A stretch of DNA of 53,150 nucleotides, taken from IMG/VR virus record IMGVR_UViG_2537562195_000010. One strand, 5' to 3'. The DNA comes from a virus (taxonomy: Duplodnaviria; Heunggongvirae; Uroviricota; Caudoviricetes). The notes beneath the pieces are model-generated. The model saw only the letters and a list, made by a program, of their open reading frames with translations, ran no database searches and was not told the origin of the DNA. Within the stretch, counting starts at the first letter, position 1, and each line of letters starts with the position of its first letter. Positions 17,767 through 52,160 of this stretch are shown piece after piece. The translations under genes were made by a program, and so were the position numbers.

Positions 17767-17842
17767 GGCCCTTTAGCTCAGTGGTGAGAGCGAGCGACTC
17801 ATAATCGCCAGGTCGCTGGTTCAAATCCAGCAAGGGCCACCA
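17767..17842 (+). tRNA. tRNA with CAU anticodon (Met or lysidine-modified Ile2)
   Basis: Hand-folded cloverleaf: acceptor GGCCCTT/AAGGGCC, D-arm GCTC...GAGC, anticodon loop CTCATAA, T-arm GCTGG-TTCAAAT-CCAGC, encoded CCA. Confidence 0.85.
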
Positions 17843-17850
17843 TATCCATA

Positions 17851-17927
17851 CCGCCATTAGCTCATCGGGATAGAGCGCCAGCCTTCGAAGCTGGCTGCGC
17901 GGGGTTCGAGTCCTCGATGGCGGTCCA
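17851..17927 (+). tRNA. tRNA-Arg (anticodon UCG)
   Basis: Hand-folded cloverleaf: acceptor CCGCCAT/ATGGCGG, anticodon stem CCAGC/GCTGG with loop CTTCGAA, T-loop TTCGAGT, encoded CCA. Confidence 0.85.
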
Positions 17928-18700: not shown

Positions 18701-18950
18701 GTGTTAAATCCCTCACAATTCAGTAAGTTGACAGTTGCCTGTCAGACTGAGCATTTGTTAAAAAAATTTCGCATGGTGAATCCCCCTGTGCGGAGGGGCG
18801 ACTGGTGAACGGTATGATCTCTTTGATGATCGTAAGCGAGAATACGCGGGTTTGGTGTCACCGGGCTGAACTCACCGGGAGGCACCCGGCACCATGCTCA
18901 TGGTGATACAGAAATGCGGCTTCAGCCCCTCTCCGGAGGGGCTTTCTTAT
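18701..18950 (+). repeat. Structured repeat unit A (family of five; possible sRNA gene or promoter-terminator cassette)
   Basis: Contains the conserved blocks 'GTTAAATCCCTCACA', 'TTGTTAAAAAAA', hairpin 'GGTGAATCCCCCTGTGCGGAGGGGC', hairpin 'CACCGGGAGGCACCCGGCACC' and terminator 'GCCCCTC-TCCG-GAGGGGC-TTTCTT' (18925-18948). Confidence 0.7.
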
Positions 18951-19110
18951 GGACAAAAAAAGCCCGCGCTGGGAGACGCGGGCGGCAAGGAATAAACAAT
19001 AAAACGTGAAGTAATACTTCAACTGGCGAATAATACCCGACAGTAATCACTCTGCGCAATAGCGTGGCCTTTTTCGAATTGCGGGCTGTAGTCTCCCTTC
19101 TGCTGGGTGT

Positions 19111-20671: not shown

Positions 20672-20907
20672 ATGTTAAATGACTCACAATTCGGTTGATG
20701 GGCTATTGTCTGATCGATGGAAGTCTTGTAAAAACGAGCCAGCATAGTGAATCCCCCTGTGCGGAGGGGCGTCTGACATGGTCTCCATAGCGATGGTCAC
20801 AATACGCAGATTCAGTAGTCAGGCTGAATCTACCGGGAGGCACCCGGCACTATGCTGCTTATGGTGTATACATAGCGATCGGCCCCTCTCCGGAGGGGCT
20901 TTTTTTG
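20672..20907 (+). repeat. Structured repeat unit B
   Basis: Same conserved blocks as unit A ('GTTAAATGACTCACA', 'AGTGAATCCCCCTGTGCGGAGGGGC', 'TACCGGGAGGCACCCGGCAC', terminator 'GGCCCCTCTCCGGAGGGGCTTTTTTT'). Confidence 0.7.
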
Positions 20908-20929
20908 TGCGGGAAAAGGCTGTGTTGTT

Positions 20930-21175
20930 AAGTGTTAAATTCCTCACAGTTCAGATGGTTGATGCTTGCCTGTCTGAGGGGGAGTTGTTAAAAAAGTTCT
21001 GCATGGTGAATCCCCCTGTGCGGAGGGGCGACTGGTATGATTTGCATCTTTTCTGTTGTAGGCAATGCAAACGCGGGTTCAGGGACACCAGACTGGACTC
21101 ACCGGGAGGCACCCGGCACCATGTTCATGATGATACAGATACGCAGTGTCAGCCCCTCTCCTGAGGGGCTTTTTT
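20930..21175 (+). repeat. Structured repeat unit C
   Basis: Same conserved blocks; terminator 'AGCCCCTCTCCTGAGGGGCTTTTTT' at 21151-21175; variable central segment. Confidence 0.7.
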
Positions 21176-21202
21176 ATGCAGGAAAAACGCTGTGTTGTGA
21201 AA

Positions 21203-21436
21203 TGTTAAATTCCTCACAGTTCAGATGGTTGATGCTTGCCTGTCTTACGGGGAGTTGTTAAAAAAGTTCTGCATGGTGAATCCCCCTGAGCGGAGGGGCA
21301 TATCAGCGCAGGTGTTTCTACTCTATCCTTTCTGTGCGGGTTCAGGTGCTGATACTGAACTCACCGGGAGGCACCCGGCATCATGCATATGGTTAACAGA
21401 CAAGTAGCGAAGCCCCTCTCCGGAGGGGCTTTTTTA
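21203..21436 (+). repeat. Structured repeat unit D
   Basis: Same conserved blocks; terminator at 21411-21436. Confidence 0.7.
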
Positions 21437-21462
21437 TGCAGGGAAAAGGCTGTGTTGTGAAA

Positions 21463-21690
21463 TGTTAAATTCCTCACAATTCATGAGGTTGATGATTGTC
21501 TGATTGATGAGGAGTTTGTTAAAAAAAACGGGCATGGTGAATCCCCCTGTGCGGAGGGGTGATATCGTATCATTTCCTGTGTGGCCGACTGATATCACGG
21601 ACATTTGTTCACCGGGAGGCACCCGGCACCATGCAGTATACAGAGATTAGGCATACATCCAGGCTCCTCATCGCAGGAGCCTTTTTACAT
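21463..21690 (+). repeat. Structured repeat unit E
   Basis: Same conserved 5' blocks; central segment forms its own inverted repeat ('GTGATATCG...CGACTGATATCAC'); different terminator hairpin 'GGCTCCT-CATCGC-AGGAGCC-TTTTTA'. Confidence 0.65.
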
Positions 21691-21918
21691 GTAAAAAAAA
21701 CCGCTCCTGGGAAGAGCGGTTGGCAAGGAAGCAAGGAATAAATAACAAAACGTGAAGTAATTTATTCAGCACCCTAATAATACCTTAGAGTAATCACCTT
21801 GCGCAACTGTAAGGGCGTATTTCTTTTTTGCGGGCTGTTTTTCTGTGTGACTTTTGTGTTTCCGGAGGTCAGCCCGTGCCTTCTCTGACTCAGAACATTA
21901 TCCCGGCCGGGAGGATTC

Positions 21919-45936: not shown

Positions 45937-46682
45937 ATGACACAGACTGAATCAGCGATTCTGGCGCATGCCCGGCGGTGTGCGCCAGCGGAGTCGTGCG
46001 GCTTCGTGATAAGCACCCCGGAGGGCGAACGGTACCAGCCCTGCGTGAATATCTCTGCAGAGCCGGAGGCGTATTTTCGTATTGCACCGGAAGACTGGCT
46101 GCAGGCACAGATGCAGGGGGAGGAGTTGTGGCGCTGGTCCACAGTCATCCCGGTGGTCTGCCCTGGCTGAGCGAGGCGGACCGGCGGCTGCAGATAAAGA
46201 GTGCCCTGCCCTGGTGGCTGGTCTGTCGGGGTGAAATTCACCGGTTCCGCTGTGTGCCGCACCTGACCGGACGGCGCTTTGAACACGGTGTGACGGACTG
46301 TTACACCCTGTTCCGGGATGCATACCATCTGGCGGGGATAACGCTGCCGGATTTTCATCGCGAGGATGACTGGTGGCGCAACGGCCAGAACCTGTACCTG
46401 GACAATATGGAGGCCACTGGCTTTTGCCGGGTGTCCCTGTCCTCTGCACAGGCAGGCGATATCCTGCTGTGCTGCTTTGGTTCATCGGTGCCGAATCATG
46501 CCGCCATTTACTGTGGCAACGGTGAGCTGCTTCACCATATACCTGAACAACTGAGTAAACGGGAGAGGTATTCTGAAAAATGGCAACGACGAACGCATTC
46601 TGTCTGGCGTCACCGCCACTGGTCCGCATCTGCCTTCACGGGGATTTACAACGATTTGGTCGCCGCATCAGTCTGTATGTGA
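45937..46682 (+). pseudogene. Tail assembly protein K (JAB/MPN plus NlpC/P60), apparently frameshifted
   Basis: N-terminal part 'MTQTESAILAHARRCAPAESCGFVISTPEGERY...' is in one frame and stops at 46170; the JAMM motif 'VALVHSHPGGLPWLSEAD' and NlpC/P60 part continue in another frame to 46682; the switch maps to a G5 run at 46116-46120. Confidence 0.65.
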
Positions 46683-47224
46683 ACACGGCAGCGGAGGCCA
46701 TCCGTGCCCTGTCGCAGCAGGTGCCGGGATTCCGCTGTCAGATGAACGAAGGCTGGTACCAGATACGTATTGCCGGTGAGGATACCGCGCCGGACCAGAT
46801 ATCGCCCCGACTGCATGAGCCACTGAACCCGGGGGATGTCATTCATCTGGTTCCCCGGGCAGAAGGTGCCAAAAGTGGCGGAGTGTTTCAGGCCGTGCTT
46901 GGCGTTGCGCTGGTTGCGGCAGCTATCTGGATGCCGGGTATCGGTATTGCAGCCAGCAACATCATGTTTTCCATGGGCTCTGCAATGGCACTGGGTGGTG
47001 TGGCCCAGATGCTGGCCCCGAAGGCAAAGACGCCGGAGTACAAAAGCACGGATAACGGCAGACAGAACACGTATTTTTCGTCACTGGACAACATGATTGC
47101 TCAGGGGAATCCGGTGCCGGTGCCTTACGGTGAAATGCTGGTTGGTTCACGACGGATATCCCAGGACATCAGCACCCGTGATGAGGGCGGTGACGGGAAA
47201 GTGGTGGTTATCGGGCGGGGATGA
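46580..47224 (+). CDS. Tail assembly protein I
   Basis: 214 aa; 'ARICLHGDLQRFGRRISLYVNTAAEAIRALSQQVPGFR...KNTYFSSLDNMIAQGNPVPVPYGEM' matches lambda gpI by eye; overlaps the K 3' end as in lambda. Confidence 0.85.
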   Translation: MATTNAFCLASPPLVRICLHGDLQRFGRRISLYVNTAAEAIRALSQQVPGFRCQMNEGWYQIRIAGEDTAPDQISPRLHEPLNPGDVIHLVPRAEGAKSGGVFQAVLGVALVAAAIWMPGIGIAASNIMFSMGSAMALGGVAQMLAPKAKTPEYKSTDNGRQNTYFSSLDNMIAQGNPVPVPYGEMLVGSRRISQDISTRDEGGDGKVVVIGRG

Positions 47225-48060
47225 AAAAAAATCCCGCAGTGTTCGGCGCCTGCGGGAAGAGATACGAAGATTAACTTTAAGGAATTTTTCATTATTCTGG
47301 CAGATGAACTGTAACGCAGCGTGATTATGAGCACTACAGTCAGTGTGCGGAAATGTGAATAAACTCAGAATTTTTATTCACCGGAAGAGGATTGCCGGAT
47401 ATCGGTGGCAGAGGACAGAAGGCATCATGCCGGGTTCAGGGGATAAAAAAATCCCGCAGAACTCCGTGCTGCGGGAAGAGAACGATGTTGACTAACCTGT
47501 TGGCGTTTTATTTTTATTGACCCGCAGAAACTGTAACCTGCCGGAATGCACTCTGCCACGGAGAATGACGGAAAATGTGAAGAAAATCAGAGTTTTTATT
47601 TATCCCGTGCATTCGTCTCTGGCGACAGAGTGGCGTCAGTAATGTCCGTGATACTGAGGGGGGAATTAAAAAATCTCCCGTAATACACCTGGATATTGAC
47701 GGGAGAAACGAATAGTCACCTTAAGGAGTAGTTTTGATTATTGCCTGTAATCAGCGGGCGAATTGTAACGTATGGTGATTATGAGTGCCACAGGTAATTT
47801 GCAGAAATGTGAATAAATTCAGAATTTTTATTCACAGGAAGGGGCTGCGGGATATTGGTGGCAGAGGACAGAAAATATCAGGCCGGGTTTAAGGGATAAA
47901 AAAATCCCGCAGAGTTAGCGGAGCTGCGGGAAATAAACGATGAAGATTAACGTTATGGAGTTATTTTTCAGGCATCAAAAAAGTAACGCAGCGTCATTAT
48001 TGCGGCTACAGGCAATTTGCAGAAATGTGAAGAATTTCAGAAATTTTATTCCGTCATGAC
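47224..48060. repeat. Four tandem ~225-bp repeat units in the I-J intergenic region
   Basis: Each unit has an A-run plus GC hairpin ('AAAAAAATCCCGCAG-N8-10-CTGCGGGAA', a minus-strand terminator-like structure; 47224-47256, 47444-47477, 47664-47705, 47898-47932), a conserved 'GTAACGCAGCGT(G/C)ATTAT' block and an AT-rich inverted repeat 'GTGAATAAA-N9-TTTATTCAC'. Confidence 0.75.
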
Positions 48061-48061
48061 A

Positions 48062-48091
48062 CAGGCACCCTCCGGGGTGCCTGTTGTTTTT
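48062..48091 (+). terminator. Rho-independent terminator just upstream of J
   Basis: 'CAGGCACCC-TCCG-GGGTGCCTG' followed by TTGTTTTT. Confidence 0.5.
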
Positions 48092-48134
48092 GGGCATAAA
48101 CAGATTCAGACATCAGACAGGAGAGGGGGACAGA

Positions 48135-51100
48135 GTGGGTAAAGGGGGCGGCAAGGGGCACACACCGCGTGAGGCGAAGGACAATCTCAAATCCACGCAG
48201 ATGATGAGCGTGATTGATGCCATCGGTGAGGGACCGGTGGAAGGCCCGGTGAAGGGACTGCAGAGTATTCTGGTGAACAAAACCCCGCTGACGGACACGG
48301 ACGGTAATCCCGTGATACACGGTGTGACCGCCGTCTGGCGTGCCGGGGAGCAGGAGCAGACACCGCCGGAAGGCTTTGAGTCCTCCGGGGCGGAAACCGC
48401 ACTGGGTGTGGAGGTGACGAAGGCAAAGCCGGTGACGCGCACCATCACGTCAGCGAACATTGACCGTCTGCGGGTCACCTTCGGGGTGCAGTCACTGGTG
48501 GAGACCAGCTCAAAGGGTGACCGTAATCCCTCTTCTGTCCGGCTGCTGATTCAGCTTGAGCGTAACGGTAACTGGGGGACGGAGAAGGATGTCACCATTA
48601 ACGGCAAGACCACCTCGCAGTACCTGACGTCGGTGATTCTGAATAATCTCCCTGAGCGCCCCTTTAACATCCGGATGGTCAGGGTGACGGCGGACAGTAC
48701 CACGGACCAGCTGCAGAACAGAACGCTGTGGTCGTCATACACCGAAATCATCGATGTGAAACAGTGCTACCCGAACACGGCCATTGTGGGGCTGCAGGTG
48801 GATGCGGAGCAGTTCGGTGGCCAGCAGATGGTGGTGAACTACCATATCCGCGGCCGCATCATTTAGGTGCCGTCAAACTATGACCCGGAAAAACGCACCT
48901 ACAGCGGTATCTGGGACGGGAGTCTGAAACCGGCATACAGCAATAACCCGGCCTGGTGCCTGTGGGACATGCTGACCCACCCGCGCTACGGCATGGGAAA
49001 ACGCCTGGGGGCGGCGGATGTGGACAAGTGGGCACTGTATGCCATCGGGCAGTACTGTGACCAGACGGTCCCGGATGGTTTCGGGGGCACAGAGCCGCGG
49101 ATGACTTTCAATGCGTACCTGTCACAGCAGCGTAAGGTCTGGGATGTCCTGGGGGATTTCTGCTCGGCGATGCGCTGTATGCCGGTATGGAACGGCCAGA
49201 CGCTGACGTTCGTTCAGGACCGTCCGTCGGATGTGGTGTGGCCGTACACCAACAGCGATGTGGTGGTGGATGATAACGGCGTGGGGTTCCGCTACAGCTT
49301 CAGTGCCCTGAAGGACCGGCACACGGCGGTGGAGGTGAATTACACCGACCCGCAGAACGGCTGGCAGACTTCCACGGAACTGGTGGAAGACCCGGACGCC
49401 ATCCTGCGCTACGGGCGCAACCTGCTGAAGATGGACGCGTTCGGCTGTACCAGCCGCGGTCAGGCTCACCGTGCCGGACTGTGGGTGATAAAGACCGAAC
49501 TGCTGGAAACGCAGACGGTGGATTTCACGCTCGGGTCTCAGGGGCTGCGGCACACGCCCGGTGACATCATTGAAATCTGTGATAACGACTATGCCGGGAC
49601 CCTGACCGGCGGACGCATCCTGTCCATCGATGCCGCCAGCCGCACACTGACGCTGGACCGTGAGGTGACACTGCCGGAGACAGGTACATCGACGGTGAAC
49701 CTGATTAACGGCAGCGGTAAGCCGGTGCGCGTGGACATCACTGCACACCCCGCCCCTGACCGGATACAGGTCAGCATTCTGCCTGATGGCGTGGCGACAT
49801 ACGGTGTGTGGGGACTCTCCCTGCCGTCACTGCGTCGTCGCCTGTTCCGCTGTGTTTCCATCCGGGAAAACACGGACGGCACCTTTGCCATCACGGCGGT
49901 GCAGCATGTGCCGGAAAAAGAAGCCATTGTGGATAACGGGGCCCGCTTTGAGCCGATGTCCGGCTCACTGAACAGCGTCATCCCGCCGGCAGTGCAGCAC
50001 CTCACGGTGGAGGTGAGTGCCTCAGACGGCCAGTATCTGGCGCTGGCGAAATGGGACACGCCGCGGGTGGTGAAGGGCGTGCGCTTCAGTCTGCGCCTGA
50101 CCAGTGGCAGTGGTGAGAACAGTCGCCTGGTGACCAGCGCCATCACGGCGGACACGGAGTACCGTTTCAGTGGCCTGCCGCTCGGGGAATACACCCTGAC
50201 GGTCAGGGCGATAAACAGCTACGGCCAGCGGGGCGAACCTGCCACCACCACATTCCGGATTAATGCACCGGCGGCACCGGCCAGCATTGAACTGACGCCG
50301 GGCTATTTTCAGATAACGGCAGTACCGGTGCTGGCAGTGTATGACCCGACGGTACAGTATGAATTCTGGTTCTCAGAAAAACGCATCACGGACACGGCAC
50401 AGGTGGAAACCTCTGCCCGTTATCTGGGTACCGGCAGCCAGTGGAGCGTCTCCGGCCCGCACATTAAGCCGGGGAAGGATTTCTGGTTTTATGTGCGCAG
50501 CGTCAACCTGGTGGGGAAATCTGCGTTTGTGGAGGCCAGCGGGCAGGCCAGCAATGATGGTGAAGGGTATCTGGAAATTTTCCGTGGGCTGATAGATGAG
50601 GCGCTGCTGGGGAAGGCACTGAAAGAGCGTATTGATGCGTCAGCCCTGCGTACTGAGGTCACGCAACTGGAAGAAGACATCCGCCAGCGACTGGAGACGG
50701 ATGTTGCGGAAGTGACCCGAAAAATCGGGGAGGCGGAAAACAGCCTCACGCAGCTGGTTGCGAAAAAGAATGAGGACCAGACGCTGGCCATCGCGCAGGT
50801 GAGTCAGCAGGTGGACCGGGTGAGCAGTGAAATCACACAGACCGTCAGCCAGAGCACGGAGGAAAACGCCAGGCAGATAGCGCAGGTCCGCCAGTACGTG
50901 GATGACAAAGGGAGTGAAATCACCTCGACCACGGATAAAAAGCTGGAAGACCAGAGCGCCACCATACAGCAGATACAGCGGGTGCAGACAGACACAAATA
51001 ACGACCTGGCTGCACTGTACATGCTGAAGGTGCAGAAAACAAAAAACGGCATTCCGTATGTTGCCGGTATTGGTGCGGGGATTGAGGATGCTGATGGCCA

Positions 51101-51821
51101 GCCCCTGAGCAATATACTGCTGCAGGCGGACCGTATCGCGATGATTAACCCGGAGAACGGCAACACCACGCCGCTGTTTGTGGCGCAGGGGAATCAGCTG
51201 TTTATGAACGACGTGTTCCTGAAGCGACTGTTTGCAGTGAGCATCACCTCGTCCGGCAATCCCCCGACGTTCTCCCTGACGCCGGAGGGCAGGCTGACGG
51301 CCCGCAATGCGGACATCAGCGGACATATCAGTGCGAACTCGGGCACGCTGAATAATGTCGTGATAGCGGAGAACTGCACGATAAATGGCACGCTGAAAGC
51401 GGAGAACATTATTGGTGATCTTGTGAAATGTGCCGGGGTGGCTTTTCCGGTGGATGGTAGTTACCTTGCGAACGGTACACGAACGCTGACGGTGTATGAC
51501 GATCACAGCTTTGACCGGCAGATTATAATCCCGCCGATAATCTATGTCGGGTCAAAACAGGAATCCCGCACCAGTAATGACATCTGGACAGAGTGCTTCC
51601 TGCATGTTGATCAGAATGGACGCCGGATTTATTCAGGCAGGTCAGTGGAAGAGCCGGGAATTTTCAGCGGGATCATCGATATGCCAGCTGGCGGTGGTCA
51701 TATCACCCTGAGTTTTACCGTGAGCTCACGGCGTCAGAATAACAGTTGGGGCAGTTCACGAATCAGTAACCTTCAGGCGATAGTGGTGAAGAAAAACAGC
51801 GCGGGGATCAGCATCCGCTGA
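48135..51821 (+). pseudogene. Tail tip / host-specificity protein J with an in-frame amber (TAG) codon
   Basis: GTG start at 48135 ('VGKGGGKGHTPREAKDNLKSTQ...'); single reading frame from 48135 to 51821 interrupted only by TAG at 48864-48866 ('RGRII*VPSNYDP'; lambda J has Gln at the equivalent position as I recall); C-terminal receptor-binding region intact. Confidence 0.8.
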
Positions 51822-52019: not shown

Positions 52020-52160
52020 ATGTCGCAAAAACCGTTAAAAACCACCGTGATTTGTATCACGGTAGTGCTCATTATCTGGATCACCCACAGTTCACTGTGC
52101 GAGTTCCGGTTCCGGATAGCGGGCGCGGAGATTGCGGCGTTCTTACAGTGTAAGCGGTAA
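52020..52160 (+). CDS. hok: Hok/Gef-family type I toxin
   Basis: 46 aa 'MSQKPLKTTVICITVVLIIWITHSSLCEFRFRIAGAEIAAFLQCKR'; TM helix plus 'SLCE(I/F)R.R....E(I/V)AAF' Hok signature; AAGGAG RBS; structured GC-rich 5' and 3' flanks as in hok/sok loci. Not in the ORF track (<60 aa). Confidence 0.7.
   Translation: MSQKPLKTTVICITVVLIIWITHSSLCEFRFRIAGAEIAAFLQCKR

Follow-up and report, generated by a model that had tools for sequence, protein, structure and literature searches.

A tandem array of PasB/EcOnc22-family small-RNA units between tail genes I and J of a lambdoid prophage

What occupies the space between the tail genes I and J of a lambdoid prophage when the stop codon of the first and the GTG start of the second lie 910 bp apart, and when no open reading frame (ORF) is common to the parts of the DNA in between? 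The question is raised by a 53,150-nt stretch of viral DNA (IMG/VR record IMGVR_UViG_2537562195_000010; Caudoviricetes), the whole of which is here called the window, and in whose I–J spacer an earlier note, made from the letters alone, had remarked four tandem units of ~225 bp with terminator-like hairpins. We consider it likely that the spacer is made up of four tandem sibling genes of a single small-RNA (sRNA) family, that of PasB of enteropathogenic Escherichia coli (EPEC) and EcOnc22 of enterohaemorrhagic E. coli (EHEC), and that their products are Hfq-dependent, trans-acting RNAs expressed from the prophage.

Four units of the PasB/EcOnc22 family

The four-unit repeat between I and J is real and not a chance pattern. 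Four co-oriented units follow each other head to tail (47217–47438, 47439–47660, 47661–47891 and 47892–48100), with start-to-start distances of 222, 222 and 231 bp, which confirms the spacing given in the earlier note. A profile hidden Markov model (HMM) trained solely on 31 single-copy I–J units from other phages matched exactly these four units in the 53-kb window and no other place, with E-values of 3.5e-49 for unit 4, 6.4e-35 for unit 1, 2.1e-27 for unit 2 and 4.9e-24 for unit 3. Likewise, the box T[CG]TGA-N6-TCACA was observed four times in the window against 0.18 expected, with one occurrence in every unit, each of them on the minus strand. The array escaped Tandem Repeats Finder, because the copies are only ~55–85% alike. 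The run of A residues and the minus-strand GC hairpin noticed before are found in all four units, the hairpin being followed in the RNA by six to eight U residues.

That these units are minus-strand small-RNA genes, each running from a promoter to a terminator, had been put forward from the sequence, and the proposal is upheld by homologues seen on northern blots or by Hfq crosslinking, namely PasB (83 nt) and EcOnc22 (~85 nt). PasB was described in EPEC strain E2348/69 (Pearl Mizrahi et al. 2021, PMC8550237; Zhu, Shabalina and Storz 2026, preprint, 10.64898/2026.05.13.724894) and corresponds to NC_011601 1466343→1466261, 83 nt on the minus strand. There the plus-strand gene I terminates at 1466255 and the plus-strand gene J begins at 1466496, so that PasB lies antisense in the I–J spacer; its 3′ end is the last U of the U-tract, and the northern probe used for it, AATCCCGCAGTGATCGCGGAGCT, is the antisense of the terminator hairpin. 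A fall of PasB in an hfq deletion has been reported (log2 values of −6.8 and −2.4), together with 37 interactions by RIL-seq, a method in which interacting RNAs are ligated and sequenced.

EcOnc22, EcOnc23 and EcOnc24 of EHEC O157:H7 Sakai (Tree et al. 2014, PMC4104026, Table S2; no targets are listed for them in PMC7873438) were found to lie in the I–J spacers of the Sakai prophages Sp15, Sp14 and Sp11, respectively, all antisense and at the same offset from the J start. EcOnc22 gave a northern band of ~85 nt and was destabilised in an hfq deletion (PMC4104026). Table S2 of that study uses an older genome version, in which AgvB1 stands at 1941783–1941835 as against 1941920–1941981 in NC_002695.2, an offset of +137 to +146 nt at 1.94 Mb; with the shift corrected, the Hfq peak of EcOnc22 falls at ~2902851–2902920, compared with 2902851–2902926 for the RNA predicted from the sequence. 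Used uncorrected, the coordinates of the table would wrongly put EcOnc22–24 on a plus-strand hairpin that stands next to J.

By homology, position, strand and terminator alike, the window units belong to the PasB/EcOnc22 family. They share with PasB the I–J spacer, the antisense orientation, the promoter layout (box, 45 nt, TAnnnT), the body motif AACUCCUU...AUCUUCAU and the terminator CCCGCAG...CUGCGGGA-U7. With PasB alone as the query, unit 4 is recovered at E = 3e-8, unit 1 at 1.6e-5 and unit 2 at 2.5e-4, while unit 3 gives no match. What sets them apart from PasB is the extent of divergence, with 59–75% identity and a longest common exact word of at most 17 nt. Unit 4 is 96% identical to EcOnc22 and has the same position and strand, whereas units 1–3 have other bodies than EcOnc22, and the Sakai prophages carry one copy each. 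Identity to PasB/EcOnc22 is 74–76% for unit 1, 65–72% for unit 2 and 57–59% for unit 3; among themselves the four units are 55–75% identical over the transcribed part, unit 3 being the most diverged (55–62% to the other units).

In contrast to the four diverged tandem copies of the window, PasB is usually represented by one variant per genome according to the available text of the preprint, which as far as it goes reports no tandem PasB copies. The survey described there used a BLAST word size of 28 and a query coverage of >75%; the count of about one variant per genome is explained by that word size, since the window units share no 28-nt word with PasB. In the literature searched, no link between PasB and EcOnc22–24 was found.

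Anatomy of the units and a CRP-like box

Family members were gathered in two ways, by an exact-pattern scan of IMG/VR and, to avoid circularity, with protein I as the query. The protein I set yielded 70 unique units, on which the conservation counts given here are based. The parts of the locus in the window, from I to J, are as follows; all RNA starts are predicted.

46580–47224, plus strand: tail assembly gene I (ORF; 'tail assembly protein' in a 100%-identical genome stretch)
47224–47302, minus strand: unit 1 predicted sRNA, 79 nt, with terminator hairpin and U8 at 47224–47257 (PasB 5′-end rule, fold, HMM)
47308–47313, minus strand: unit 1 putative −10 hexamer TACAGT (TAnnnT at the fixed distance from the box)
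47354–47369, minus strand: unit 1 box TCTGAGTTTATTCACA, CRP-like and centred 59.5 nt upstream of where the RNA is predicted to start
47445–47524, minus strand: unit 2 predicted sRNA, 80 nt, with terminator and U7 at 47445–47476 (5′-end rule, fold, HMM)
47530–47535, minus strand: unit 2 putative −10 hexamer TACAGT, with −35-like GTGGCA 18 nt upstream
47576–47591, minus strand: unit 2 box TCTGATTTTCTTCACA
47604–47669, no strand assigned: linker between units 2 and 3, in which short vestiges of the J start region (GGCGACAGAGTGG) and the 3′ end of I can be seen (short matches)
47668–47756, minus strand: unit 3 predicted sRNA, 89 nt, with terminator (13 pairs) and U6 at 47668–47706 (5′-end rule, fold, HMM)
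47762–47767, minus strand: unit 3 putative −10 hexamer TACAAT, with GTGGCA 18 nt upstream (the sole promoter called by a consensus scan)
47808–47823, minus strand: unit 3 box TCTGAATTTATTCACA
47898–47974, minus strand: unit 4 predicted sRNA, 77 nt, with terminator and U7 at 47898–47931 (5′-end rule, fold, HMM)
47980–47985, minus strand: unit 4 putative −10 hexamer TACTTT
48026–48041, minus strand: unit 4 box TCTGAAATTCTTCACA
48061–48094, plus strand: intrinsic-terminator-like hairpin of 10 pairs (7 GC), then TGTTTTTGGG, directly upstream of the J ribosome-binding site
48135–51821, plus strand: tail tip gene J, GTG start (ORF, interrupted by an in-frame TAG at 48864–48866)

The stop codon of I (TGA, 47222–47224) abuts the U-tract of the unit 1 RNA. 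At the other end of the array, the plus-strand hairpin before J is kept where a single unit is present (BP-4795, Sakai Sp15 and E2348/69), and late transcription through it needs readthrough, presumably by Q antitermination.

Read on the RNA strand, the family members begin with the box AATAAAAnTTCTGA-N6-TCACATTT, whose TCACA half is present in all 70 unique units and whose TCTGA half is present in 68 of them. A weak −35-like element, GTGGCA or GTAGCC, lies in the variable stretch after the box, and it is followed by the motif GCGTTAC..T, the TAnnnT hexamer of which occurs in 70/70 units (as TACAGT, TACTTT, TAGTGT, TACAAT and others). Counted from the T of TCACA, the hexamer begins after exactly 45 nt in 67/70 units and after 46 nt in 3/70. 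Further downstream come a stretch that is variable and rich in A, then the motif (A)ACUCCUUAA..GUUAAUCUUC(A/G)U, the hairpin and the U-tract. Transcript starts were placed at the sixth nucleotide after the hexamer, a rule under which the 83-nt PasB comes out exactly as published and which yields predicted RNAs of 77–89 nt for the window units, instead of the ~110 nt envisaged before.

Two further elements of the earlier description are modified by the family-wide comparison. Promoter elements on the minus strand are again predicted, but the conserved one is the TAnnnT hexamer at its fixed distance from the box and not the TATAAT-like hexamer upstream. The latter, 16 nt upstream of TAnnnT in many variants and a perfect TATAAT in E2348/69, is lost in several others (GTGCAT, AACCTT) and has therefore not been taken as the family promoter; transcription from it would also give an RNA of ~96 nt, against the reported 83–85 nt. 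Only units 1 and 3 have a perfect copy of the 9-bp inverted repeat GTGAATAAA...TTTATTCAC, which in units 2 and 4 is degenerate and the left arm of which is not kept among the 70 unique related units; what is conserved instead is the TCTGA-N6-TCACATTT box, which overlaps the right arm.

All four window RNAs are predicted to fold into an unstructured 5′ part of ~45 nt followed by a stem of 8–13 bp and U6–U8, and a consensus-structure search of the family returned the terminator and nothing else that was conserved. The unit 2 RNA body, CGCCAACAGGUUAGUCAAC, is unlike those of the other units, and unit 3 has a longer terminator with another stem sequence that still pairs. Among the four minus-strand hairpins, a simple terminator scan flagged that of unit 4 alone, because the hairpin loops are long. 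AAN triplets are abundant in the 5′ parts (for example AAUAAUGAAAAAU, and AACAAAAACAAC in PasB), and AAN-rich stretches suit the distal face of Hfq; taken with the terminator and the U-tract, they suggest that the window RNAs carry the usual Hfq module. The Rfam search recommended in the earlier note brought up no relevant family at gathering thresholds or at E ≤ 10. Rfam 15 holds no model for PasB or EcOnc22, nothing in 47100–48200 matched at gathering thresholds, and the best sub-threshold matches (anti-hemB, GcvB and Trp leader; 15–19 bits against cut-offs of 41–99) recognised the terminator only.

An invariant box at a fixed spacing points to a protein site. The consensus of CRP, the cyclic AMP (cAMP) receptor protein, is TGTGA-N6-TCACA, and a class I site is centred near −61.5 or whole helical turns further upstream. 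TCTGA-N6-TCACA agrees with that consensus at 9/10 core positions, and the unit 1 box agrees with the textbook consensus AAATGTGATCTAGATCACATTT at 15/22 positions by our own count. The box centre lies 59.5 nt before a PasB-type 5′ end, that is, at −59.5 to −61.5 depending on the true start. PasB was higher in the 'non-activating' culture, where the CRP-repressed Spf was ~5-fold lower. The units are thus possibly under CRP–cAMP control and, since the box looks like a class I CRP–cAMP activator site, their expression would probably be highest without glucose.

Copy number, distribution and origin of the array

Comparison of I–J junctions across related prophages, which had been proposed as a check, revealed that the spacer varies from one to four units or holds the gene sodC. 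Deposited phages (long-tailed Stx1a, Stx2a and Stx2c phages, BP-4795 and others) have one unit of ~240–280 bp in the I–J spacer. In a set of 80 IMG/VR loci, selected as the nearest by protein I and without the motif, a single unit is the rule (54 loci, spacer ~240–345 bp), whereas two units were found in 8 (421–489 bp), three in 3 (715 bp) and four in 10 (907–929 bp). The sodC-type spacer, of 854 bp, was seen in L144 (3372–3900, minus strand), L140, L160, L170, L175 and L177; it carries a minus-strand gene for a periplasmic Cu,Zn superoxide dismutase and then a truncated sRNA unit, in which the −10 region, the body and the terminator are kept and the box is lost. Since the I–J spacer holds either sRNA units or sodC, it can be regarded as a place for cargo genes that read in the direction opposite to the late operon.

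The query, of 1,101 bp, matched 1,755 of the 5,426 complete E. coli genomes (about one third), at up to 12 places per genome, and the full array (at least 80% of the query) is present in 79 of the 5,426. The 40 best-matching of these 79 have it at 98.6–100% identity and are mostly non-O157 Shiga toxin-producing E. coli (STEC; O113:H21, O91:H21, O104:H21 and O22:H8). None of 50,697 deposited phage genomes contained the full array. When single genomes, one for each species, were scanned for exact matches to the pattern only, 22 hits were obtained against an estimated ~23 by chance; none of the hits fits the unit HMM, and the scan so provided no evidence for the family outside E. coli-type prophages. 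A random local amplification, which the earlier note would have deduced from a lack of transcripts and of conservation, is contradicted by the detection of homologous RNAs and by the occurrence of the unit in about one third of complete E. coli genomes.

An array placed against the late operon might act in cis, either by convergent transcription or antisense pairing that attenuates or uncouples J, or through terminators that insulate the tail operon. By construction, the RNAs are perfectly complementary to the I–J spacer of the late transcript; four strong minus-strand terminators would halt antisense transcription from the J side; and the plus-strand terminator-like hairpin directly before J is conserved in single-unit phages. 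However, the only coding base that the RNAs touch is the final one of the I stop codon, and from the closest RNA 5′ end (47974) to the J start (48135) there are ~160 nt, so that the J ribosome-binding site cannot be occluded. Every unit stops at its own terminator before I, which is a design of insulated cargo and not of interference, and homologues are abundant in lysogens while the late operon is silent and have many partners in trans. Other phages, moreover, hold an unrelated minus-strand cargo, sodC, in the same spacer. As the RNAs overlap neither coding sequence beyond that base nor a ribosome-binding site, a role in cis is unlikely. The phrase 'antisense within the tail operon' is hence apt topologically, but it does not extend to an overlap with I beyond the stop codon, and the known homologues act in trans; an insulator or attenuator as the primary function is not supported.

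The history of the array is partly legible in its sequence. Units 1 and 3, with their linkers, are the most alike (82–88%), and the repeat families D1, D3 and D7 recur at 453–455 bp, which makes two units the period of the array. In the middle linker (47604–47669), GGCGACAGAGTGG resembles the J start region GGGGACAGAGTGG and is followed by a remnant of the I 3′ end; the matches are short, and they are suggestive only of a junction left by tandem duplication of an 'I-end ... J-start' block with two units. Two- and three-unit arrays contain hybrid units, such as one in locus L125 in which a promoter of the unit 3 type is joined to a body of the unit 2 type, from which it follows that units recombine with each other. 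The same array goes with I alleles of 100% and of 77–78% protein identity, and a blastn search of the flanks for recombination breakpoints at the spacer gave no decisive result. Unequal recombination between I–J spacers, in which a two-unit block was duplicated, may have produced the array, with promoter and body modules still being exchanged.

Given this history, the repeats could be chiefly substrates or by-products of recombination at a tail-module boundary, in which case only the EcOnc22-like unit proximal to J would matter and the other three would be decaying passengers. A copy number of one to four, hybrid units, linkers that retain traces of the start of J and of the 3′ end of I, and the association of one array with distinct I alleles are all in keeping with such a view, and unequal crossing-over between units, the process behind the 'recombination targets' of the earlier note, clearly occurs. 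As an account of the primary function it is nevertheless improbable. The box, the exact 45-nt spacing, TAnnnT, the terminator and the U-tract are intact in all four units despite bodies that are only 55–75% alike, which argues for selection on each gene rather than decay, and for four working genes, not for decaying duplicates; in addition, the array is 98.6–100% identical in the 40 best-matching of the 79 genomes, which include several STEC serotypes. That the units encode plus-strand small proteins from ATGAAGATTAAC (MKIN...) can hardly be entertained, for although unit 4 and the BP-4795-type unit have ATG ORFs starting MKIN (39 and 31 codons), ACG replaces ATG in units 1 and 3, the frame over the conserved GTAACG differs among variants with indels that are not multiples of three, no Shine–Dalgarno sequence precedes the ATG, and no ORF is common to the four units.

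Expression, possible roles and known systems

Homology, synteny, anatomy and copy-number polymorphism are demonstrated here, and we infer that all four copies are expressed, that CRP controls them and that the array widens the range of targets. Each gene would be transcribed on the minus strand, from its own promoter to its own terminator, against the late operon, with a layout of TCTGA-N6-TCACATTT box, weak −35, TAnnnT, a start ~6–7 nt later, an A-rich body and a Rho-independent terminator. The RNAs would be made from the resident prophage like other 'moron' cargo, and would bind Hfq and pair in trans with mRNAs from the host and from islands; in cultures that have not been induced the homologues are abundant, and their mRNA partners are many. 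Because the bodies are only 55–75% alike, the array probably gives both a higher dose and a wider seed set than a single copy.

Several points weigh against four expressed, trans-acting siblings. The expression of all four copies is extrapolated from homologues, and the 5′ end of PasB was itself estimated from read coverage and blot size and not mapped. The TATAAT-like hexamer could after all be the true promoter, transcription from it being followed by processing. The CRP assignment draws on agreement with the consensus and on a single, indirect correlation in expression; in the left half-site a C stands where CRP prefers G, and the box centre is only approximately at the canonical −61.5. As to targets, there is no PasB entry in Table S7 (common target motifs) of the source study, and when the four RNA bodies were scanned for duplexes with 210 translation-initiation regions of the window, no outlier appeared (best z ~−3).

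A more elaborate picture, which we find rather doubtful, is that of a CRP-switched battery of up to four Hfq-dependent siblings, with modules reshuffled by crossing-over, in which the array size and the seed set of a lysogen would tune host gene expression and the late transcript would serve on induction as a sponge that turns off all the siblings together. The late transcript does carry the complement of all four RNAs; that it sponges them after induction is speculation.

The prophage in the window is lambdoid with HK97-type head genes and, in a nearly identical genome stretch, lies next to ompW, no stx gene being annotated in that stretch. The amber codon in J (TAG, 48864–48866) comes after 243 codons, where strain 2012C-4502, otherwise identical, has CAG and a single J of 1,228 amino acids. 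Unless it is suppressed, this in-frame stop probably makes the prophage copy of the window tail-defective, and neither of the two phage tRNAs of the window is a suppressor. The two tRNA genes (17767–17927, plus strand) are tRNA-Met (CAT) and tRNA-Arg (TCG) by ARAGORN, whereas for the corresponding position of the matching genome RefSeq gives tRNA-Ile and tRNA-Arg, ~160 bp earlier under the assumed alignment.

Other cargo was noticed as well. An ORF of 387 codons at 43854–45017 (plus strand), a porin OmpC by annotation in the matching genome, sits inside the tail operon between an upstream tail gene ('phage tail protein') and minor tail protein L. Just downstream of J, a 46-codon ORF (52020–52160, plus strand) is annotated in the matching genome as a Hok/Gef family toxin, a second Hok/Gef gene being located in the early region of the same prophage there. 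Five matches to the Rfam sRNA STnc100 lie at 18742–18954 and 20713–21692 (plus strand; 119–172 bits against a cut-off of 47), and four of the five stand head to tail at a spacing of ~260–270 bp downstream of the Q/tRNA region, forming a second tandem sRNA array. In Sakai, STnc100 copies are back to back with AgvB; in the window, an Rfam scan gave no match to AgvB/AsxR.

The RNA family discussed here is already known experimentally, whereas the four-gene array and three of its variants appear to be undescribed. What is new is the set of three diverged siblings, the tandem array with its copy-number polymorphism, the link between PasB and EcOnc22 and the conserved CRP-like box. PasB of EPEC and EcOnc22–24 of EHEC, which had been named independently, are thereby brought together in a single family, the fixed site of which is in the tail operon, and that family is much larger and more varied than the strict BLAST survey in the available text of the preprint suggested. 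The array is also a clear case of prophage sRNA copy number rising by tandem duplication, something that the same survey, as far as the text goes, did not find for other Pas sRNAs. For annotation, the array accounts for a large stretch that seems 'empty' in the tail operons of many non-O157 STEC prophages.

Clusters of sibling sRNA genes are known from bacterial genomes, LhrC1–4 of Listeria being one of them. OmrA/OmrB, PrrF1/PrrF2 and Qrr1–5, which the available text of the preprint gives as comparators, are further such clusters, in which several homologous genes stand side by side as in the window array. Common to these clusters and to the array are a terminator for each gene and conserved segments shared among copies alongside divergent stretches; each gene of the clusters has its own promoter, as is predicted for the array, and the clusters combine dosage with partly non-redundant targets. 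Unlike them, the window array is on a prophage, inside a tail operon and opposite to it, and its copy number ranges from one to four by strain. The other comparison is with 'moron' cargo, including the AgvB/AsxR–STnc100-like pairs downstream of PR′ (Tree et al. 2014, PMC4104026), which, as is predicted for the window units, are self-contained, with promoter, gene and terminator, stand between essential phage genes and are expressed in the lysogen; the window units differ from these pairs in their I–J site, in their unrelated sequence and in belonging to no Rfam family.

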